From Escherichia coli (GTDB lineage Bacteria; Pseudomonadota; Gammaproteobacteria; Enterobacterales; Enterobacteriaceae), in assembly GCF_044324785.1 (NCBI RefSeq), contig NZ_CP172127.1: a DNA stretch of 64,000 nt. One strand, 5' to 3'. This document shows positions 26,000-39,181 of the stretch, one piece after another. The notes below the pieces were generated by a model. The model did not search any database and had not been told where the DNA came from. It saw only the letters and a program-made list of their open reading frames with translations. The translations under genes and the position numbers were made by a program. How positions within the stretch are numbered: position 1 is the stretch's first letter; each line of letters starts with the position of its first letter.

Positions 26000-26320
26000 A
26001 TGAACGACAGTGAATTTCATCGCCTGGCTGATCAACTCTGGCTGACCATTGAAGAGCATCTGGACGACTGGGATGGCGATAGCGATATCGACTGCGAAAT
26101 CAACGGCGGCGTACTGACCATTACCTTTGAGAACGGTAGCAAAATCATTATCAACCGTCAGGAACCGCTGCACCAGGTGTGGCTGGCAACCAGGCAGGGC
26201 GGCTACCATTTCGACCTGAAAGGCGATGAGTGGATTTGCGATCGCAGCGGCGAAACCTTCTGGGATTTGCTGGAACAGGCGGCGACGCAGCAGGCGGGTG
26301 AAACAGTCAGTTTCCGCTAA
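26000..26320 (+). CDS. cyaY: Frataxin homologue CyaY
   Basis: 106-aa [59 protein letters not shown]... Confidence 0.93.
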
Positions 26321-26359
26321 TATTGCATGCCGGATAAGCTTCGCTTTCCGGCACGCTCA

Positions 26360-28906
26360 TCACGAAAAATACTGCTGTAATAGCGGCGTGTCGTGATCCT
26401 GATTGGCAGGCGGCATGTTGCCGATAGATTTGGTGCGGAACGGAATCACCTGTTCACGACCATCAACCTTCACAATCTGATAGAACTGCGGCAGGTTGAA
26501 GTTGATGAAGCTTGAGCCGTAGGTAAAACGGTCGTGCGATGACGAGTAGAAGCGACTGACGTCACGCACCAGCTCCTCTTTGCTGCCTTCGCAGTGGTGA
26601 TACACCTCAACCCGGTTGCTTTCGTCGAGAATGTAGATATTAAAGCCATTCTCGTCTTGCGTTTCTTCGAAGAAGAACTGGATGATCCCTTCGCTGGCAA
26701 AGCCGTCCACCACCGCCGGTAATTTGACGTGATTGGTTTCAACCTGCACTGACAGGCCGTGCAGTTTGTTATGCGAAATAGCGCCATAAAACTCGATGGC
26801 GTTTTCCAGTTTCTGTACCGATACATTCAGGCGTTCGAAGAACAAGCCCCAGGTTTGACCAGAAACGCGCAGCGCCTTGAAACGTCCGGTTTCCTGGCGG
26901 GTGCTGGAAAGACGCAATTCAATACACTCAGAAACCAGTTGCTGCACGCGAGTACGGATTAAGCCGCGCAGATGCTGGCTGTAGCAGAAGACTTCCACGC
27001 TATCTGGCGGTGCGGCGTCCTGATGCATTTTGCCGAGAATAGTTTTCAGGGCTTCGATCATCGATTGCTCGCCGTTGAAGTGCAGCGTACGCACTTCGTT
27101 CCACGAGTTGCGGTACAGCAGGTCCACGCTACCCACCAGGCAATTTTGGTTTTCGCCAAAGCTGAAGACATCCAGCTTACGGAAATCAAAATGCACCACC
27201 TGATTGCGGAACGCAGCTGTCGGGTCATATTCCAGGTTAACGATAATCGCCAGATGGCGAATTTCACACGGGCTGTAGAGCGCTTTTGGCGTCGGTGCAG
27301 GCAGGCGCAGCGGGAAATGGTGTGACACATCGGCGACCATCTCCTGCAACTTAGGCAAATCGACAATGCCGTTACCTTTAATATACAAACGGGTACGCGA
27401 GGTCAGCAGGCCGTTAAACCATGCCCACGCCACCAGTTTATTCAGGTAACGGTTATATTCCAGCGGCTGATGGCTGATGATCGACTCAATATTTGGCGCG
27501 CGGTTATACAGATACCAACCTGAACGGTTAGCCCGGCCCGGCGGCACATAAATAAAGGTCAGATTCGGTTCCGAGAGATCGGGTGAAATCTGCGGGTTTA
27601 CCAGCGTCACTTTACCCGGCAATGCTTCAAACGCGGCATACAGCTTACGCGTCAGCACGCCGATATCCTGCGGACTGGCGGAGACGCTCAGGTTATTGCG
27701 ACGCGCAAAGCGGATCAGATTGCGGTAGCTCTGCATCATCGCGTCGAGCAACTCGTTGTGCGCCTCACGCACCTGATCAATCTTCCAGTTAGCGCGGTTA
27801 TCGAGCATTGCCAGACGCGCATCGTCCCATTCCCACTCTTTCACTAACTGGGTTAGCACTTCACGACGCCAGCCTACACAGGCGCGTTCACGGCTGAGTT
27901 TTTCGCACACTTTTAAATAGAAGCAGCGACGTACTAAATCCAGACGGGTGAAATCTTCAATCGCCGTCAGGTATTCAGTAACACGCTCCAGCATCATGCA
28001 GTACGGATCGAGGCCAAACGATACAATCTCGCCGTCGTGCAAACGCTGTTTGATATCTTTCGCCAGCAGTCGTGGGTTCGGGTATTCCCAGGAATAGGCT
28101 TCCAGCAGCAGTGTTTTCAGCACCGCTTTGTATGGGGAATCGATACTCTTATAGAGCTGCCAAAGGCTGGCACCAAAGTACTCTTCAGCAGAAAGTGAGC
28201 TTAAGCCACCGAGATCCAGCCATTCATTTGGCGTCAGCACGCCCTGCGCGTAAAGCGTCATCACATAGTCATCGTAATGCTCTTCTTCGTCGCACGGCAC
28301 CATATTCCACAGAATACGCTTACCGGCGAGACGCACGGCGGTACGATAAAATTCGTCAAGCAGCAGTATATGCTGGGTGGAGCCACAATCTTCGCCCCCC
28401 AGGCTGCCGCTTTCATTATGACGGAAGCGGTTTTCATCAATCAGGAAGAAGCTAACTTCCACGCCCAGCGAGGCGGCCCAGCTTTCCAGCAGGCTGCATT
28501 TACGTTGTAGTAACTGGCGCTCTTCGCTATCAAGCCAGGATTGATGACAGACCCAGATATCAAGGTCAGAGGAACAACTTTGCCCTACGGACGAGGTGCT
28601 GCCCATGGTGTATACACCAGTAATTGGAAGCTCACCTTTCGGCGGGTCCTGTACTGACATTCCACGATACAGTTCAAGCTCGTTCAGATAGTGGCGTTGA
28701 GTTTCATCAGGCGTGTAAAGGCAAATGCCTTTGGGAACGTTACCATCAAGGTAACCCGGCATTAGCGGATGGTGATAGTGCAACAATGTCGGCAGTAGAC
28801 TGTAGACCTGTTGGAATGCAGGCCCCATAGCAGCAAGCGCGCGATCCACACGCAATTGATTTATGGCATCCAGTCTCTGTTTCAGAGTCTCAATATAGAG
28901 GTACAA
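26360..28906 (-). CDS. cyaA: Class I adenylate cyclase
   Basis: 848-aa [38 protein letters not shown]...; initiation codon is TTG (plus-strand 'caa' at 28904..28906). Confidence 0.93.
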
Positions 28907-29292
28907 GACGTATCGCCTGATTTGCTACCCGTCATGACTGTGATTCCGCCAACATCAACGGTAACACGCGGCATTCGGGATATTTCGTATGTCAAAGGTA
29001 ACCGTTACCACTTTTCGCGCCTGGTTTTTTTAGTTTCACGACGAAAAAATGGTCTAAAACGTGATCAATTTAACACCTTGCTGATTGACCGTAAAGAAAG
29101 ATGCGCTACATACAAGTGTAGCACCGTTTATTCTCTGTAAATTCCTTATTACGACGGCGTGAAACGCCTGTCAGGATCCACTGCCAGACCTCATTTTACG
29201 GTTTGCGCAGGCGTCTACGTTTCACCACAACACTGACATCGCTCTGGCAAGGATGTTAGGATGGACCACGGATGATAATGACGGTAACAAGC

Positions 29293-30234
29293 ATGTTAGA
29301 CAATGTTTTAAGAATTGCCACACGCCAAAGCCCACTTGCACTCTGGCAGGCACACTATGTCAAAGACAAGTTGATGGCGAGCCATCCGGGCCTGGTCGTT
29401 GAACTGGTACCGATGGTGACGCGCGGCGATGTGATTCTTGATACGCCGCTGGCGAAAGTAGGCGGAAAAGGCTTATTTGTAAAAGAGCTGGAAGTCGCGC
29501 TCCTCGAAAATCGCGCAGATATCGCCGTACATTCAATGAAAGATGTGCCGGTTGAATTCCCGCAAGGTCTGGGGCTGGTCACCATTTGCGAGCGTGAAGA
29601 TCCTCGCGATGCCTTTGTGTCCAATAACTATGACAGTCTGGATGCGTTACCGGCAGGCAGTATCGTCGGGACGTCCAGTTTACGTCGCCAGTGCCAACTG
29701 GCTGAACGCCGCCCGGATCTGATTATCCGCTCCCTGCGCGGCAACGTCGGCACTCGCCTGAGTAAACTGGATAACGGCGAATACGATGCCATCATTCTTG
29801 CCGTAGCCGGACTAAAACGTTTAGGTCTGGAGTCACGCATTCGCGCCGCGTTGCCACCCGAGATTTCTCTTCCGGCGGTAGGACAAGGTGCGGTGGGCAT
29901 TGAATGCCGCCTTGATGATACACGCACTCGCGAGCTGCTTGCCGCGCTGAATCACCACGAAACTGCACTGCGCGTTACCGCAGAACGCGCCATGAATACC
30001 CGTCTCGAAGGCGGATGTCAGGTGCCAATTGGTAGCTACGCCGAGCTTATTGATGGCGAAATCTGGCTGCGTGCGCTGGTCGGCGCGCCGGACGGTTCGC
30101 AGATTATTCGCGGTGAACGCCGCGGTGCGCCGCAAGATGCCGAACAAATGGGGATTTCGCTGGCAGAAGAGCTACTGAATAACGGCGCGCGCGAGATCCT
30201 CGCTGAAGTCTATAACGGAGACGCCCCGGCATGA
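29293..30234 (+). CDS. hemC: Porphobilinogen deaminase (hydroxymethylbilane synthase)
   Basis: Start placed at [27 protein letters not shown]... (313 aa); the ORF has 7 additional upstream in-frame codons. Confidence 0.92.
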
Positions 30235-30971
30235 GTATCCTGGTCACCCGCCCGTCTCCCGCTGGAGAAGAGTTAGTGAGCCGTCTGCGCACACTGGGGC
30301 AGGTGGCCTGGCATTTTCCGCTGATTGAGTTTTCTCCGGGTCAACAATTACCGCAACTTGCTGATCAACTGGCAGCGCTGGGGGAGAGCGATCTGTTGTT
30401 TGCCCTCTCGCAACACGCGGTTGCTTTTGCCCAATCACAGCTACATCAGCAAGATCGTAAATGGCCCCGACTACCTGATTATTTCGCCATTGGACGCACC
30501 ACCGCACTGGCACTACATACCGTAAGCGGACAGAAGATTCTCTACCCGCAGGATCGGGAAATCAGCGAAGTCTTGCTACAATTACCTGAATTACAAAATA
30601 TTGCGGGCAAACGTGCGCTGATATTACGTGGCAATGGCGGTCGTGAGCTAATTGGGGATACCCTGACGGCGCGCGGTGCTGAGGTCACTTTTTGTGAATG
30701 TTATCAACGATGCGCAATCCATTACGATGGTGCAGAAGAAGCGATGCGCTGGCAATCCCGCGAGGTGACGACGGTCGTTGTTACCAGCGGTGAAATGTTG
30801 CAGCAACTCTGGTCGCTGATCCCACAATGGTATCGTGAGCACTGGTTACTACGCTGTCGACTATTGGTCGTCAGTGAGCGTTTGGCGAAACTCGCCCGGG
30901 AACTGGGCTGGCAAGACATTAAGGTCGCCGATAACGCTGACAACGATGCGCTTTTACGGGCATTACAATAA
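30231..30971 (+). CDS. hemD: Uroporphyrinogen-III synthase
   Basis: 246-aa ORF; start overlaps the hemC stop (ATGA). Confidence 0.9.
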
Positions 30972-30992
30972 CTCTCATAACAGGAAGCCATA

Positions 30993-32240
30993 ATGACGGA
31001 ACAAGAAAAAACCTCCGCCGTGGTTGAAGAGACCAGGGAGGCCGTGGACACCACGTCACAACCTGTCGCAACAGAAAAAAAGAGTAAGAACAATACCGCA
31101 TTGATTCTCAGCGCGGTGGCTATCGCTATTGCTCTGGCGGCGGGCGTCGGTTTGTATGGCTGGGGTAAACAACAGGCCGTCAATCAGACTGCCACCAGCG
31201 ATGCCCTGGCTAATCAACTTACGGCACTGCAAAAAGCCCAGGAGAGCCAAAAAGCCGAGCTGGAAGGCATTATCAAGCAACAGGCTACGCAGCTTGAACA
31301 GGCGAATCGTCAGCAAGAAACGCTGGCAAAACAGTTGGATGAAGTCCAACAAAAGGTCGCCACCATTTCCGGCAGCGATGCTAAAACCTGGCTGCTGGCT
31401 CAGGCTGATTTCCTGGTGAAACTCGCCGGACGGAAGCTGTGGAGCGATCAGGACGTCACGACCGCTGCAGCGTTGCTGAAAAGTGCAGACGCCAGCCTGG
31501 CGGATATGAATGACCCGAGTCTGATTACCGTTCGTCGGGCAATTACCGATGATATTGCCAGCCTTTCTGCGGTATCGCAGGTGGATTATGACGGCATTAT
31601 CCTTAAGCTGAATCAGCTTTCAAATCAGGTAGATAACCTGCGTCTGGCTGATAATGACAGCGATGGTTCGCCGATGGATTCCGACGGTGAAGAGCTTTCC
31701 AGTTCCCTCAGCGAATGGCGTATCAATCTGCAAAAAAGCTGGCAGAACTTTATGGACAACTTCATTACGATTCGCCGTCGTGATGACACCGCCGTACCGC
31801 TGTTAGCGCCGAATCAGGATATCTATCTGCGCGAAAATATTCGCTCTCGCCTGCTGGTCGCTGCACAAGCTGTACCGCGTCATCAGGAAGAGACTTATCG
31901 CCAGGCGCTGGAGAATGTCTCCACCTGGGTACGTGCTTACTACGATACTGATGATGCCACCACCAAAGCGTTCCTCGACGAGGTGGACCAGTTAAGCCAG
32001 CAAAATATCTCGATGGATCTCCCGGAAACCCTGCAAAGCCAGGCGATGCTGGAAAAACTGATGCAGACTCGCGTGCGTAACCTGCTGGCACAACCGGCAG
32101 CGGGGACAACGGAAGCTAAACCTGCACCTGCACCTGCACCTGCACCTGCACCTGCACCTGCACCTGCACCTGCACCTGCACCTGCACCTGCACCTGCACC
32201 GCAAGCTGATACTCCGGCAGCCGCGCCGCAAGGAGAATAA
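30993..32240 (+). CDS. hemX: HemX (membrane-anchored coiled-coil protein with C-terminal Pro-Ala repeat)
   Basis: 415-aa [55 protein letters not shown]...; ends ...AK(PA)13[13 protein letters not shown]. Confidence 0.9.
32121..32198 (+). repeat. Perfect hexanucleotide tandem repeat (CCTGCA)13 within hemX, encoding (Pro-Ala)13
   Basis: Thirteen uninterrupted CCTGCA units counted directly from 32121 to 32198; in frame. Confidence 0.95.
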
Positions 32241-32242
32241 CC

Positions 32243-33439
32243 ATGCTAAAAGTGTTATTGCTCTTTGTTTTGCTGATTGCGGGGATAGTGGTTGGCCCGA
32301 TGATTGCCGGTCATCAGGGTTACGTGCTGATCCAGACCGACAACTACAATATTGAAACCAGCGTCACTGGCCTGGCGATTATTTTGATTCTGGCGATGGT
32401 AGTGCTGTTTGCCATTGAGTGGCTACTGCGGCGGATCTTCCGCACTGGCGCGCACACCCGTGGGTGGTTTGTCGGACGTAAGCGTCGCCGTGCCCGTAAG
32501 CAGACCGAACAGGCGCTGCTGAAACTGGCGGAAGGCGATTATCAGCAAGTTGAAAAGCTGATGGCGAAAAATGCCGATCACGCTGAACAACCGGTGGTGA
32601 ACTATCTACTGGCTGCCGAAGCCGCGCAACAACGTGGTGATGAAGCACGCGCCAACCAACATCTGGAACGCGCAGCGGAGCTGGCCGGCAACGACACAAT
32701 TCCGGTAGAAATCACCCGTGTACGTCTGCAACTGGCCCGTAATGAAAACCATGCAGCACGTCACGGCGTTGATAAGCTGCTGGAAGTTACGCCACGCCAT
32801 CCGGAAGTATTACGTCTGGCGGAACAGGCGTATATCCGCACAGGTGCATGGAGTTCGCTGCTGGATATCATCCCATCAATGGCGAAAGCCCACGTTGGCG
32901 ATGAAGAACATCGTGCAATGCTGGAACAACAGGCATGGATTGGCCTGATGGATCAGGCGCGCGCCGATGACGGTAGCGAAGGTTTGCGAAACTGGTGGAA
33001 AAACCAAAGCCGGAAAACGCGTCATCAGGTGGCGTTACAGGTGGCAATGGCGGAACATCTTATTGAATGTGACGATCATGATACTGCTCAGCAAATTATC
33101 ATCGACGGCCTGAAACGCCAGTATGATGATCGTCTGCTGCTGCCGATCCCGCGTCTGAAAACCAATAACCCGGAACAGCTTGAAAAAGTGCTGCGCCAGC
33201 AAATCAAAAACGTCGGCGATCGCCCGCTGTTGTGGAGCACACTGGGTCAGTCGCTGATGAAGCACGGAGAATGGCAGGAAGCATCGCTCGCCTTCCGCGC
33301 AGCGCTGAAACAACGTCCGGACGCCTACGATTACGCATGGCTTGCCGACGCGCTGGACAGACTGCACAAGCCGGAAGAAGCCGCAGCGATGCGTCGCGAT
33401 GGCTTGATGTTAACGTTGCAGAACAACCCGCCACAGTAG
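32243..33439 (+). CDS. hemY: HemY (TPR-containing inner membrane protein)
   Basis: 398-aa ORF MLKVLLLFVLLIAGIVVGPMIAGHQGYVLIQTDNYNIETSVTGLAIILIL... Confidence 0.9.
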   Translation: MLKVLLLFVLLIAGIVVGPMIAGHQGYVLIQTDNYNIETSVTGLAIILILAMVVLFAIEWLLRRIFRTGAHTRGWFVGRKRRRARKQTEQALLKLAEGDYQQVEKLMAKNADHAEQPVVNYLLAAEAAQQRGDEARANQHLERAAELAGNDTIPVEITRVRLQLARNENHAARHGVDKLLEVTPRHPEVLRLAEQAYIRTGAWSSLLDIIPSMAKAHVGDEEHRAMLEQQAWIGLMDQARADDGSEGLRNWWKNQSRKTRHQVALQVAMAEHLIECDDHDTAQQIIIDGLKRQYDDRLLLPIPRLKTNNPEQLEKVLRQQIKNVGDRPLLWSTLGQSLMKHGEWQEASLAFRAALKQRPDAYDYAWLADALDRLHKPEEAAAMRRDGLMLTLQNNPPQ

Positions 33440-33486
33440 TTCTTTCTCACCCGGAGGCAAGCACCTCCGGGACCTTTCTGATACAT

Positions 33487-33693
33487 AAAAAAACGCCTGC
33501 TCTTATTACGGAGCAGGCGTTAAAACAGGTCTGTATGACAACAAGTGGGTGCTTCACTCAACGTTGTGTCCATGGTGTCTGATGAGGCATAAGCGACATC
33601 TGTCAGTGGACGATAAGCACCGTAAACGGCTCTGCGTCATTCCGGAGTTTATGAGGCACTAAGGCGAACATAAGAGATGGAATGAGCATCTAC
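33487..33693 (-). ncRNA. glmZ: Small regulatory RNA GlmZ
   Basis: Minus-strand sequence GTAGATGCTCATTCCATCTCTTATGTTCGCCTTAGTGCCTCATAAACTCCGGAATGACG...AACGCCTGCTCCGTAATAAGAGCAGGCGTTTTTTT matches the GlmZ sequence as I recall it, including its terminator hairpin and U-tail; located in the hemY-aslA spacer. Confidence 0.9.
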
Positions 33694-34117
33694 TCGTTTA
33701 TTATGCCACAGAGAACCGGGAAATAACATCCCTTAACACTTGTTATGAGATAATTCTGTAATCCTCTTTGCTTCCTGAGTAATAACTTCCTGAGTGAATA
33801 TTTCTCCTGCGCACGATTCTACACATATATATAATGAATAATAAAAGTCATTCAATTAATAACATATATATTAATTGCCGTTAAAACTAAAAACAGCATC
33901 AATAATCAACGCGATATAACATCACCGCCTTACATATCACCTGCGCCAGAGGTAGGATTGAAAACGCTCTCCTGATTTTCCAATTCATTTTCTGGATAAA
34001 TAAATAATTTATTTTTATCACTATTATTTATGCAATCATCCTGTCAGGGAGAGGGATCTCAATTATCAATGCTTAATTACGTCAACATTTTGACGACATG
34101 AAACCGGAGCATTTTGC

Positions 34118-35773
34118 ATGGAATTTTCGTTTTCACCCAAACTTCTTGTTGTGGCTGTCGCCGCCGCTCTTCCACTCATGGCCAACGCAGCAGATACCCC
34201 GTCAACCGCCACCGCACGCAAAGGCTTTGCCGGATACGATCACCCAAACCAGTATCTGGTTAAACCGGCGACCACTATTGCCGACAACATGATGCCGGTG
34301 ATGCAGCATCCTGCACAAGACAAAGAAACCCAGCAGAAGCTGGCAGAACTTGAGAAAAAAACCGGTAAGAAACCGAACGTGGTTGTTTTCTTGCTGGATG
34401 ATGTGGGCTGGATGGATGTTGGCTTTAACGGCGGCGGCGTGGCGGTGGGTAACCCTACACCAGATATCGACGCCGTTGCCAGCCAGGGGCTGATTTTAAC
34501 TTCGGCGTATTCTCAACCGAGTTCTTCCCCAACCCGCGCCACGATTCTTACCGGACAATACTCCATCCACCACGGCATTCTGATGCCGCCAATGTACGGG
34601 CAACCGGGCGGTCTGCAAGGGTTAACCACTCTGCCGCAGTTGCTGCACGATCAGGGCTACGTCACTCAGGCCATCGGGAAATGGCATATGGGGGAAAACA
34701 AAGAGTCGCAGCCGCAGAACGTTGGCTTTGATGATTTCCGCGGCTTTAACTCGGTATCCGATATGTATACCGAATGGCGTGATGTTCACGTCAACCCGGA
34801 AGTCGCCCTGAGCCCGGATCGTTCTGAATACATCCAAAAACTGCCGTTCAGCAAAGATGACGTTCATGCCGTGCGCGGCGGTGAACAGGAAGCCATTGCC
34901 GACATTACGCCGAAATATATGGAAGACCTGGATCAACGCTGGATGGAATATGGCGTTAAGTTCCTCGACAAGATGGCGAAGAGCGATAAGCCTTTCTTCC
35001 TCTACTACGGCACTCGCGGCTGTCACTTCGATAACTACCCAAATGCGAAATATGCGGGTAGCTCTCCGGCGCGCACCTCTTACGGCGACTGCATGGTGGA
35101 GATGAACGATATCTTCGCCAATCTGTATAAAGCACTGGAGAAAAACTGTCAGCTTGATAACACGCTGATTGTGTTCACCTCTGATAACGGTCCGGAAGCC
35201 GAAGTTCCGCCGCACGGTCGCACACCGTTCCGCGGTGCGAAAGGTTCTACATGGGAAGGCGGCGTTCGTGTGCCAACCTTCGTTTACTGGAAAGGCATGA
35301 TCCAACCGCGTAAATCTGACGGCATTGTCGATCTGGCGGATCTCTTCCCTACGGCGCTGGATCTGGCGGGGCATCCTGGGGCGAAAGTAGCGAATTTAGT
35401 ACCGAAAACCACCTTTATCGATGGTGTGGACCAGACATCTTTCTTCCTGGGAACAAATGGTCAGTCTAACCGTAAGGCCGAGCACTACTTCCTCAACGGT
35501 AAACTTTCTGCTGTGCGTATGGATGAGTTCAAGTATCACGTCCTGATCCAGCAACCGTACGCGTATACCCAGAGCGGGTATCAGGGTGGATTCACCGGCA
35601 CAGTAATGCAAACGGCGGGATCGTCGGTGTTTAACCTGTACACCGATCCGCAGGAAAGCGACTCCATCGGCGTGCGCCATATCCCAATGGGTGTACCGCT
35701 ACAGACCGAAATGCACGCGTATATGGAGATCCTGAAAAAATATCCACCACGCGCGCAGATTAAATCTGATTAA
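34118..35773 (+). CDS. aslA: Arylsulfatase (sulfatase family, periplasmic)
   Basis: 551-aa ORF with signal peptide and sulfatase active-site region (…[17 protein letters not shown]…). Confidence 0.9.
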
Positions 35774-35809
35774 GCCGGCGCTATCGCTACATCGGGCCAC
35801 ACTGACCTT

Positions 35810-35839
35810 GCCGGATGCGGCGTGAACGCCTTATCCGGC
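35810..35839. repeat. REP element
   Basis: 'gccggatgcggcgtgaacgccttatccggc' is the canonical REP palindrome, between convergent aslA and aslB. Confidence 0.85.
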
Positions 35840-35851
35840 AATCAACCGCAG

Positions 35852-35876
35852 GCGGCCACAAAATGGCCGCTTTTTT
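35852..35876 (+). terminator. Intrinsic terminator downstream of aslA
   Basis: Stem 'gcggcca caaaa tggccgc' followed by 'tttttt'; overlaps the aslB stop codon. Confidence 0.6.
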
Positions 35877-37110
35877 ACTTATTCACCACCATCAAATGCG
35901 CCTGCATAATGTCGCTGGCCGGACGACCGTGCGCCAGCAAATCAGCCATTGCTTTAAGATATGGCGGTAGATGGCGGAAATAACGCTGATACCCGGCACA
36001 CAAATAATTCAGCCCGGGTTTGCCGCTGGCATCGAGCATAAAGCGGTGTTTCGGACAGCCTCCCCAGCACGCTTTTAACACGTTGCAACTGCGACACTGC
36101 GCCGGTAACTGCTTAAATTTATCTTCACCAAACACCTGCTGTTGCGGGGAATCGATCATTTCTGCAATTGTTTGCTGGTGCATATTCCCCAGCCGATATT
36201 GCGGATAAACATAGTGATCGCAGGCGTAAACGTCGCCGTTGTGCTCAACAATCACCGAGCGCCCACAGGTTGGCTGATGATGGCAAACCGCACCTGGCGC
36301 ACCGACAAAATTGGCAAACGTCCATTCGATATTCATCACGAAAATCTTGCCGACGTCGCGTTTAATCCAGTGGTCGAATATCGCCACCAGAAATTCACCA
36401 AATTCATCGGGGCGCACCGACCATTCCGTCAGTTCGCCCTGAATATCGCCAGGCGCATGCAATTTCAGTCCATCGCGGGCAGCTGTTTCATCAGCCAGAC
36501 GCTCGACCACCGGAATAAACTGGATGAATTCCACTCCCGCATCGCACAAAAAATCATAAACCTGCAACGGTTGCTGCGCGCTGGTGCGGTTGACGCAGAC
36601 CAGCACGTTATAGTCGACATGATGTTTTTGCAGGAGCGTCAGGGCACGCATCACCAGCTTATGCGTTGGTCTGCCGCCTTTGGTCACGCGATATTGATTG
36701 TGGATCTCAGCCGGACCATCCAGCGATAACCCAACAAGAAAATGATTTTCTGCCAGAAATGCACACCATTCGTCATCAAGCAGAACGCCGTTAGTCTGGA
36801 AGCTGTTACTTATCTTCCTGCCAGCACCATATTTCGCCTGTAGCACCACGGCACGGCGGTAAAAATCCAGCCCGAGTAACGTTGGTTCGCCACCCTGCCA
36901 GGTAAAAGCCACTTCGTTTTGGGTTTCGCTGGCAGCGATATAGTGACGGACATACGCTTCCAGCGTGTCATCGTCCATATGAGTGACTGGCTTTTCGCGG
37001 TAAAGGGATTGTTTTTCGAGATAAAAACAGTAGTCACAGTTCAGATTACAATCGGAACCGCTCGGTTTCGCCATCACATGAAAAGCACGCGTTGGAACCT
37101 GTTGCAGCAT
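35875..37110 (-). CDS. aslB: Anaerobic sulfatase-maturating enzyme homologue (radical SAM)
   Basis: Start placed at MLQQVPTRAFHVMAKPSGSDCNLNCDYCFYLEKQ... (411 aa); CxxxCxxC radical-SAM motif; 'cat' at 37108..37110. Confidence 0.88.
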   Translation of the reverse strand: MLQQVPTRAFHVMAKPSGSDCNLNCDYCFYLEKQSLYREKPVTHMDDDTLEAYVRHYIAASETQNEVAFTWQGGEPTLLGLDFYRRAVVLQAKYGAGRKISNSFQTNGVLLDDEWCAFLAENHFLVGLSLDGPAEIHNQYRVTKGGRPTHKLVMRALTLLQKHHVDYNVLVCVNRTSAQQPLQVYDFLCDAGVEFIQFIPVVERLADETAARDGLKLHAPGDIQGELTEWSVRPDEFGEFLVAIFDHWIKRDVGKIFVMNIEWTFANFVGAPGAVCHHQPTCGRSVIVEHNGDVYACDHYVYPQYRLGNMHQQTIAEMIDSPQQQVFGEDKFKQLPAQCRSCNVLKACWGGCPKHRFMLDASGKPGLNYLCAGYQRYFRHLPPYLKAMADLLAHGRPASDIMQAHLMVVNK

Positions 37111-37223
37111 GGTCGCTCCTTGCCTGAAGTCATCCTTCAATAAGTTAAGGGCGAAATCATACCGTGGCGCAATGAGTTATTACGGGCGTTTATTGCGAAG
37201 GGAAAGTGACGAAATGCACAGAA

Positions 37224-37250
37224 AACAAAAAACCCCGCCGAAGCGGGGTT
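37224..37250 (-). terminator. Intrinsic terminator of the argX-hisR-leuT-proM tRNA operon
   Basis: Minus-strand 'ccccgcttcggcgggg' stem followed by 'ttttttgtttt' immediately 3' of proM. Confidence 0.8.
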
Positions 37251-37256
37251 CAAAAT

Positions 37257-37333
37257 TGGTCGGCGAGAGAGGATTCGAACCTCCGACCCACTGGTCCCAA
37301 ACCAGTTGCGCTACCAAGCTGCGCTACTCGCCG
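37257..37333 (-). tRNA. proM: tRNA-Pro
   Basis: Minus strand reads CGGCGAGTAGCGCAGCTTGGTAGCGCAACTGGTTTGGGACCAGTGGGTCGGAGGTTCGAATCCTCTCTCGCCGACCA, with encoded CCA. Confidence 0.95.
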
Positions 37334-37375
37334 AAATACTGCTTTTTGAATTTTTAGTTCAATTCTTTAAAGTCG

Positions 37376-37462
37376 TGGTGCGAGGGGGGGGACTTGAACC
37401 CCCACGTCCGTAAGGACACTAACACCTGAAGCTAGCGCGTCTACCAATTCCGCCACCTTCGC
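37376..37462 (-). tRNA. leuT: tRNA-Leu (anticodon CAG)
   Basis: Minus strand reads GCGAAGGTGGCGGAATTGGTAGACGCGCTAGCTTCAGGTGTTAGTGTCCTTACGGACGTGGGGGTTCAAGTCCCCCCCCTCGCACCA (long variable arm). Confidence 0.95.
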
Positions 37463-37482
37463 ATTGTCACAACTTCTAATAA

Positions 37483-37559
37483 TGGGGTGGCTAATGGGAT
37501 TCGAACCCACGACAACTGGAATCACAATCCAGGGCTCTACCAACTGAGCTATAGCCACC
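37483..37559 (-). tRNA. hisR: tRNA-His
   Basis: Minus strand reads GGTGGCTATAGCTCAGTTGGTAGAGCCCTGGATTGTGATTCCAGTTGTCGTGGGTTCGAATCCCATTAGCCACCCCA (with extra 5' G). Confidence 0.95.
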
Positions 37560-37616
37560 ACTACAAATCTTGTTACGCGGTATTACTACCACCGCAGCTC
37601 AAGCGCCGGGACTAAA

Positions 37617-37693
<77 letters not shown>

Positions 37694-37795
37694 TTAGCGC
37701 CGTTGCGGGGGTGGATAATACGGACTTCCCACCCCTCTGTCTAGTCCCTTTTTAAATAAATTGCGCGTTTGGTTACGGTTTGTGCGTTTTGCTGC

Positions 37796-39181
37796 TTATT
37801 CCTCCAGTTTATGCGCTTTACCGTGGCGATTAAGCCCAAAAACTTTATAAATCGCCGTCACCGCCAGCATAAAGATGATGCCGACAAACAGCGACATACG
37901 CGTATCTTCATTAAAGTACATGCCGATCAAAACGCAAATCAGGAATGCCATTGTTACGTAGTTGGCCCACGGGAACAGGATTGAGCGGAACGGATGGCTG
38001 GCAATCGCCGCTTTATGCGCACGACGAAAACGCAGCTGGCTTATCAATATCACAAACCATGGCACCATCCCCGGAAGCACGCTGGCACTGTAGACGTAGA
38101 CAAACACACGCTGCGGATTGGGAATGACGTAGTTCAGGCATGAGCCAATTAACAGGATAGCAATAGATACTGCCACACCCGCAACCGGTACGCCGTGACG
38201 GGAAACTTTCGCCATCGCCGCCGGTAACTGACGGTTTTTCGCCAGTGCGTAGAGCATACGTCCGCAACTGTACATGCCGCTGTTACAGCCAGAGAGCGCA
38301 GCCGTCAGCACCACAAAGTTGATAATGCCCGCCGCTGCGGTAATACCGATTTTGGCGAAAGTCAGTACGAACGGGCTGCCGTTACTGCCTATTTCATTCC
38401 ACGGGAAGATGGTGACGATAACGAAAATCGCGCCTACGTAGAAAATCAGGATACGCCACAACACTTTGCCTACGGCACTGCGCAGCGTCACCTGCGGATT
38501 CTTCGCTTCACCGGCAGTAATGCCAATCAGCTCCACGCCCTGGTAGGACGCCACCACAATACACAATGCGGTCAGGAACCCTTTCCAGCCACCCGCAAAG
38601 AAACCGCCATGCTCTGTGAGATTGCTAAAACCAATCGACTGCCCGCCATTGCCAAAACCAAAGAAAATCACGCCCAGGCCAATGACAATCATCACGATAA
38701 TCGTGGTGACTTTGATCATCGCGAACCAGAACTCGATTTCGCCGTACAACCGCACCGCCGCCAGATTCGCCAGCGCCACCAGCGCCACCGCGATCAATGC
38801 GGGTATCCACTGCGCCATCTCCGGGAACCAGAACTGGACATAAACGCCAATGGCGGTGATTTCTGAGATCCCCACCGCCATCCACATAAACCAGTAAGAC
38901 CAGGCGGTGAGATAACCAAAGAACGGGCTCATATAACGATGCGCGTAAACGGCGAACGAACCGGTAACCGGTTCGAGGAACAACATTTCGCCCATTGAAC
39001 GCATGATGAAAAAGACGAACAGCCCGGCGATGATATAGGCCAACAATACGGATGGCCCGGCCCATTTCAGGGTACTGGCGGCCCCCATAAACAGGCCGAC
39101 GCCAATGGTGCCCCCCAGGGCGATGAGTTCGATATGTCGAGCTTCCAGCCCACGCTGTAGCTCTGGTTTGTTATCTGCCAT
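37796..39181 (-). CDS. yifK: APC-family amino acid permease
   Basis: 461-aa 12-TM-like [40 protein letters not shown]... Confidence 0.9.

Follow-up and report, generated by a model that had tools for sequence, protein, structure and literature searches.

Hexanucleotide VNTRs that lie in frame within enterobacterial genes change their length by slippage steps that keep the reading frame, and their mutability rises with array length. STTR5 in yohM of Salmonella Typhimurium and several 6-bp loci of O157 are perfect in-gene arrays of this kind and serve as clocks in outbreak typing. For the VNTRs of O157:H7, Vogler et al. reportedly showed in 2006 that the mutation rate depends on copy number. 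The generic E. coli MLVA scheme of Lindstedt et al. from 2007 is said to comprise seven loci, one of which is CVN014, and the same locus is reportedly included in GECM-10, the ten-locus scheme published by Lobersli et al. in 2012. STTR5 has been treated in PMC5183578, and CVN014 has been rated the top locus of its scheme for variability, across serotypes as well as inside one serotype or sequence type (PMC3877011, PMC3407997, PMC3519732, PMC3424435). For instance, it was the "most polymorphic locus" in non-O157 STEC, with 4-15 units and a Nei index of 0.83 (PMC3519732), and its alleles ranged from 2 to 11 within ST131 isolates alone (PMC3407997). The unit number of CVN014 is obtained from the fragment length as (PCR size - 111)/6 (PMC8143711).

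Results

The hemX repeat is the typing locus CVN014

The window analysed here is the whole stretch of 64,000 nucleotides (64 kb) taken from E. coli contig NZ_CP172127.1 (assembly GCF_044324785.1). At the 3′ end of its hemX gene lies a 78-base repeat which is the known locus CVN014, and hence an already known feature. The locus is made up of the following elements (window coordinates, strand in brackets):

30993-32240 (+), hemX coding sequence, 415 aa (NCBIfam PRK10920, Pfam PF04375)
31992-32231 (-), antisense ORF encoding (Arg-Cys)13, 79 aa, start codon TTG
32082-32120 (+), stretch of the C-terminal tail that precedes the repeat (13 residues), directly after the Pfam HemX domain
32097-32116 (+), CVN014 R primer (PMC8143711, Table 1), GCAGCRGGGACAACGGAAGC, binding with 0 mismatches
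32121-32198 (+), (CCTGCA)13 array, core of VNTR locus CVN014, from sequence reading and Tandem Repeats Finder
32199-32240 (+), tail after the repeat, 13 residues and the stop codon
32243-33439 (+), hemY coding sequence, 398 aa, beginning 2 bases past the hemX stop codon and 45 bases past the repeat
32262-32285 (-), CVN014 F primer (PMC8143711, Table 1), TCCCCGCAATCAGCAAMACAAAGA, binding with 0 mismatches

Direct reading of the window gave a perfect (CCTGCA)13 of 78 bases, exactly where the original prediction had placed it and in the frame that it had assigned, and Tandem Repeats Finder delimited the array at 32120-32200 with a period of 6, 13.5 copies, 100% matches and 0% indels. Within the 64-kb window it is the sole tandem repeat with a score of at least 60, and no other perfect repeat built from units of 2-9 bases reaches 24 bp; by chance, a perfect 78-base hexamer array would be expected about 6e-39 times per 64 kb. 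In the ORF at 30993-32240, a codon begins at position 32121, so that CCT GCA is read as (Pro-Ala)13, occupying residues 377-402 of the 415-aa HemX. The opposite-strand (Arg-Cys)n ORF that had likewise been predicted is present as well. It carried no RefSeq annotation in the five genomes inspected, where only hemX and hemY were annotated at this place, and we take it to be a side effect of the repeat rather than a gene.

Both CVN014 primers found one match each in the window, without mismatch and with the array in between, and the predicted amplicon is 189 bp, i.e. 111 + 6 x 13, corresponding to allele 13. Since both primers match and bracket the array, and since the amplicon has this length, the array is CVN014; the link between hemX and CVN014 was thus made via primer sequences matched to the window, in which no further CVN primer pair found a match. 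For K-12, the predicted CVN014 amplicon is 123 bp (2 units), and amplicons of 207-261 bp are predicted in other genomes (16-25 units), the genome alleles found here (2-25) overlapping the published CVN014 ranges (1-16). The original prediction did not recognise the array as CVN014, and the comparison of strains which it suggested amounts to what has been common practice since 2007. Our literature search, which did not cover the original description of 2007, returned no paper tying hemX to a VNTR, and the MLVA papers examined, again excluding that description, neither name hemX nor mention the Pro-Ala coding consequence.

As to the surrounding genes, hemC and hemD lie upstream of hemX, and hemY and then aslA follow downstream. 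Beyond aslA, four tRNA genes (Pro-TGG, Leu-CAG, His-GTG and Arg-CCG) are located at 37257-37693 on the minus strand, as in K-12, where they are proM, leuT, hisR and argX.

HemX carries the Pro-Ala tract in its C-terminal tail

HemX matched NCBIfam PRK10920 over residues 1-415 with 721.6 bits (cut-off 313) and Pfam PF04375 (HemX) over residues 130-363 with E = 3.8e-108. A Lys-rich segment at the N-terminus is followed by one predicted membrane helix at about residues 36-57, by a long helical coiled-coil segment, and then by the Pfam HemX domain. What remains, residues 364-415, consists of 13 residues, (PA)13 and another 13 residues, with Ala and Pro together accounting for 73%. In an AlphaFold2 model of low confidence (mean pLDDT 43, from an alignment of 11 sequences), no secondary structure was seen in residues 365-415. 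By the positive-inside rule, as applied to the sequence, this C-terminal tail is probably periplasmic.

The original prediction had described a Pro-Ala linker. The (Pro-Ala)13 stands, but the word linker is inexact: the Pfam scan detected no domain beyond residue 363, and because the Pfam domain stops there and only 13 residues come after the repeat, the tract is a Pro/Ala-rich C-terminal tail and not a connection between domains. The same scan of HemX found no methyltransferase domain of the CysG/CobA type, its only hits being PF04375 and weak coiled-coil and membrane noise, and the RefSeq product name of HemX, uroporphyrinogen-III C-methyltransferase, appears to be a historical carry-over. 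A match to pneumococcal PspA (NCBIfam, E = 1.5e-5, far below the cut-off) was rejected as compositional, reflecting coiled coil and Pro-rich sequence. The protein is poorly characterised (PMC2704936); it has been described as a distant Mic60 homologue without a mitofilin domain (bioRxiv 10.1101/2022.06.14.496148), and the Keio hemX deletion is viable and reduces the gentamicin sensitivity of K-12 (PMC12282077).

Array length varies widely among E. coli genomes

With a 578-base query, the locus was found in 5,425 of 5,426 complete E. coli genomes, nearly always as a single chromosomal copy. The number of units was derived for each genome from the span of the query match in the record, in two systematic samples of 60 genomes drawn in even steps down two differently ranked lists, which together comprise 119 distinct genomes. 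Both samples gave near-identical distributions, which when pooled read as follows (units: genomes):

2: 20; 3: 4; 4: 10; 5: 18; 6: 25; 7: 9; 8: 7
9: 8; 10: 6; 11: 5; 12: 2; 13: 2; 17: 1; 18: 1

The median is 6 units and the Simpson diversity about 0.89, with about 14 alleles in 119 genomes, among which laboratory K-12 strains are over-represented; moreover, the unit numbers are those of assemblies, some of which could be mis-assembled. At least 13 units were present in about 3% of the sampled genomes, which places the 13-unit allele of the window in the upper tail. A synthetic query of 25 units recovered further alleles of 12-25 units, including 14, 15, 16, 17, 18, 19, 20 and 25, in a ranking that is not monotonic with array length, as flank alignments overlap inside the repeat. 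The longest of these, in strain SD134209, was read as a perfect 25-unit array in a HemX of 439 aa. Every long allele that was read (13, 13, 16, 17, 17, 18 and 25 units) proved to be uninterrupted. Overall, the range extends from 0 units, represented by a deletion allele, and then from 2 up to 25, so that the hypervariability between strains expected by the original prediction is borne out by precisely the comparison of hemX repeat numbers that had been suggested as its check. K-12 MG1655 and its derivatives carry 2 units and a HemX of 393 aa, 22 residues shorter than that of the window, in good agreement with the difference of about 20 residues given in the original prediction. The expectation that slippage would keep the frame also held, the differences among the alleles examined being multiples of 6 with the exception of one allele that is 93 bp shorter and still in frame.

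This exception is strain NCTC11023 (NZ_LS483297.1), whose HemX has 384 aa and whose hemX, 93 bp shorter than that of the window, lacks any CCTGCA unit and also the PQADT codons. It ends with GCT AAA CCG GCA GCC GCG CCG CAA GGA GAA TAA (about positions 520-577 of the locus), and the dinucleotide CC is common to both end points of the deletion.

Variation was also found among related records. Those labelled O157:H7 had 4, 6, 7, 12 and 17 units, and genomes of equal identity to a 12-kb query had 6, 7 or 13. The Seoul clinical isolates ECO_1_S and ECO_2_R, with 17 and 16 units, respectively, showed 0 differences in two flanks of 3,150 bp each, which may reflect the recent gain or loss of a single unit inside one clone. 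The M12 "capsule spontaneous mutant" series was uniformly n=12 and the sampled K-12 derivatives uniformly n=2, and this constancy implies that the array is stable over a few laboratory passages. Over window positions 26000-38000 (12 kb), strain N3 was the best-matching complete genome with 99.0% identity, and 4 records reached 99%.

A separate observation concerns an ENA metagenome scaffold (L010), which is possibly an assembly artefact. Its hemX, encoding a protein of 485 aa (P0001), contains a tandemly duplicated internal segment of 246 nt, the copies of which begin at gene nucleotides 888 and 1134, and an interrupted repeat of the form CCTGCA x3 - CCTACA - CCTGCA x3.

Related genera and the hemX-hemY junction

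The HemX tails of Escherichia, Citrobacter and Salmonella are all Pro/Ala-rich and all end in ...AP(A/T)APQGE. The hexamer unit of E. coli occurs as pure (GCACCT)5 at the hemX 3′ end of Citrobacter gillenii and as pure (GCACCT)4 in C. rodentium, and these pure arrays indicate that a short starting array predates E. coli. In C. freundii, HemX contains APAPAP encoded by mixed codons, and Citrobacter species overall have 0-5 units; Salmonella HemX contains no Pro-Ala run. Two single records, either of which could be a sequencing error, deviate in other ways: in a 413-aa HemX of Salmonella Berta (P0044), 24 residues are duplicated where the membrane helix ends, and a 435-aa HemX from a JGI contig (P0115) has a frameshift in the Pro/Ala tail and runs into the hemY region.

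The last codons of hemX, CAA GGA GAA TAA, include the hemY Shine-Dalgarno sequence GGAG at 32232-32235, and the hemY ATG is at 32243. In the loci of Citrobacter and Salmonella, this DNA at the hemX end is conserved with only synonymous third-base changes. Overlap with the hemY Shine-Dalgarno sequence is a sufficient explanation for the invariant ...QGE end and probably accounts for the invariant ...PQGE end of HemX.

Discussion

We consider it highly probable that the array as a whole is to be understood as CVN014, a slippage-driven and frame-preserving repeat whose changes in length are tolerated in the HemX tail. Most likely, replication slippage (slipped-strand mispairing) adds or removes whole CCTGCA units, and since the unit equals two codons each length change keeps the frame. 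A slippage event would thereby gain or lose Pro-Ala pairs in a tail that seems to tolerate from 0 to at least 25 of them. The step of one unit by which ECO_1_S and ECO_2_R differ in otherwise identical sequences is the behaviour expected of a slippage microsatellite. Furthermore, all 13 Pro codons of the repeat are CCT, as against 10 CCG and 1 CCT in the rest of hemX, and together with the uninterrupted state of long arrays this argues for amplification of one DNA unit and not for selection of codons. The repeat also folds as single-stranded DNA, with -14.9 kcal/mol for the plus strand (z = -5.5) and -18.1 kcal/mol for the minus strand (z = -2.5), forming a quasi-hairpin in which 4-bp TGCA/TGCA blocks alternate with C.C or G.G mismatches; such quasi-hairpins may help slippage by stabilising slipped intermediates.

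Judged from the spread of alleles, changes in tract length appear to be neutral or nearly so. Their tolerance is supported by the tract-less allele of NCTC11023, by K-12 with its 2 units, Citrobacter species with 0-5 and Salmonella without a run, and likewise by the position of the repeat outside the Pfam HemX domain and the dispensability of hemX in K-12. That copy number drifts quickly is what makes CVN014 work as an epidemiological marker. A counterpoint to near-neutrality is the end of the tail, ...APQGE, which is invariant across genera and could be a sign of tail function.

Such a function would be most explicit if the tract acted as a "tuning knob", i.e. as a stiff (Pro-Ala)n spacer setting the reach of the HemX C-terminal peptide into the periplasm, with the variation made by slippage being under selection. 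The shared Pro/Ala-rich tail of Escherichia, Citrobacter and Salmonella and its conserved ...AP(A/T)APQGE end are in line with this idea, as is the distant homology to Mic60, whose alphaproteobacterial form has been proposed to contact the outer membrane via BamA (bioRxiv 10.1101/2022.06.14.496148). The lowered gentamicin sensitivity of the K-12 hemX deletion (PMC12282077) furthermore offers a phenotype that is in principle open to modulation. However, the alleles form a continuous range from 0 to 25 units without sign of a favoured length in any lineage, NCTC11023 and Salmonella do without the tract, and the conservation of the last codons is explained by their second role as the hemY Shine-Dalgarno sequence, with no recourse to protein function. 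We thus regard selection on spacer length as improbable, and we give a slightly smaller chance to the more far-reaching proposal that the number of Pro-Ala pairs, by setting tail reach, creates heritable and reversible differences between lineages in an envelope or respiration trait such as aminoglycoside susceptibility. If true, CVN014 would be a graded "tuning" locus.

The length of the array might instead act at the level of DNA or RNA by altering the translational coupling of hemX and hemY, and with it HemY output, through mRNA structure or ribosome transit. The geometry is suggestive, as 2 bases separate the hemX stop from the hemY ATG, the ribosome-binding site of hemY lies inside hemX, and the array, which can self-pair via its TGCA blocks, is situated 45 bases upstream of the hemY start. 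Ribosomes translating hemX should nevertheless unwind this region, and the wide allele spread together with the deletion allele speaks against a strong constraint. Consecutive prolines are a context known for ribosome stalling, but (Pro-Ala)n contains none, and on balance we hold an effect on hemY to be very unlikely. We attach practically no weight to the remaining two accounts. A long, perfect and fast-mutating simple-sequence repeat in a coding region does resemble a classical phase-variable contingency locus, in which slippage serves as an on/off switch; yet a 6-base unit, being a multiple of three, cannot shift the frame, which rules out this kind of switching, and furthermore all alleles examined are in frame, hemX is annotated as intact in all records inspected, and HemX is an inner-membrane protein and no surface antigen. 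Similarly, short-read assemblies can give a wrong length for repeat arrays, but an artefact of assembly or sequencing is ruled out for the locus as a whole, as the array occupies the same place with differing unit numbers in 5,425 complete genomes and PCR fragment sizing in many laboratories gives a matching range of alleles.

Under the preferred reading of slippage with tolerated length, the practical value of the array lies in the typing of outbreaks and clones, for which CVN014 discriminates best among the loci of the generic E. coli MLVA scheme, and this value is already exploited. The present analysis makes small additions: the marker is tied to the hemX 3′ end and to a (Pro-Ala)n C-terminal tail, its alleles are surveyed in complete genomes (0 and 2-25 units, median 6, with the 13 units of the window in the top ~3%), and a natural tract-less allele is documented, as is a CCTGCA-type unit at 4-5 copies in some Citrobacter species. 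A wider importance would arise only if tract length changed HemX function.

Pro-Ala or Pro-rich spacers are familiar from the bacterial envelope and beyond, for instance in the OmpA hinge, the (Glu-Pro)n(Lys-Pro)n segment of TonB, the Ala/Pro linkers of the E2p lipoyl domains and the proline-rich region of PspA. The HemX tract is similar to these in composition and is expected to share their extended, non-globular conformation. However, whereas they link one folded domain to another or bridge the periplasm towards a partner, the HemX tract is followed by 13 residues and by no known partner or downstream domain; moreover, and unlike the HemX tract, they are not encoded by pure DNA repeats. With the contingency loci of Haemophilus and Neisseria, the hemX array has in common that it is a slippage-prone simple repeat within a gene, but the units of these loci are not multiples of 3, their effect is on/off, and they reside mostly in surface or restriction-modification genes, in contrast to a 6-bp unit in the gene of an inner-membrane protein. 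The VNTRs of the STTR5 type are likewise perfect in-frame 6-bp arrays and differ in their genes and units. With CVN014 as used in E. coli/Shigella MLVA, finally, the array of the window is one and the same locus, having the 6-bp unit and the amplicon of 111 + 6n bp, with no difference at the sequence level and with an allele numbering that varies by laboratory.
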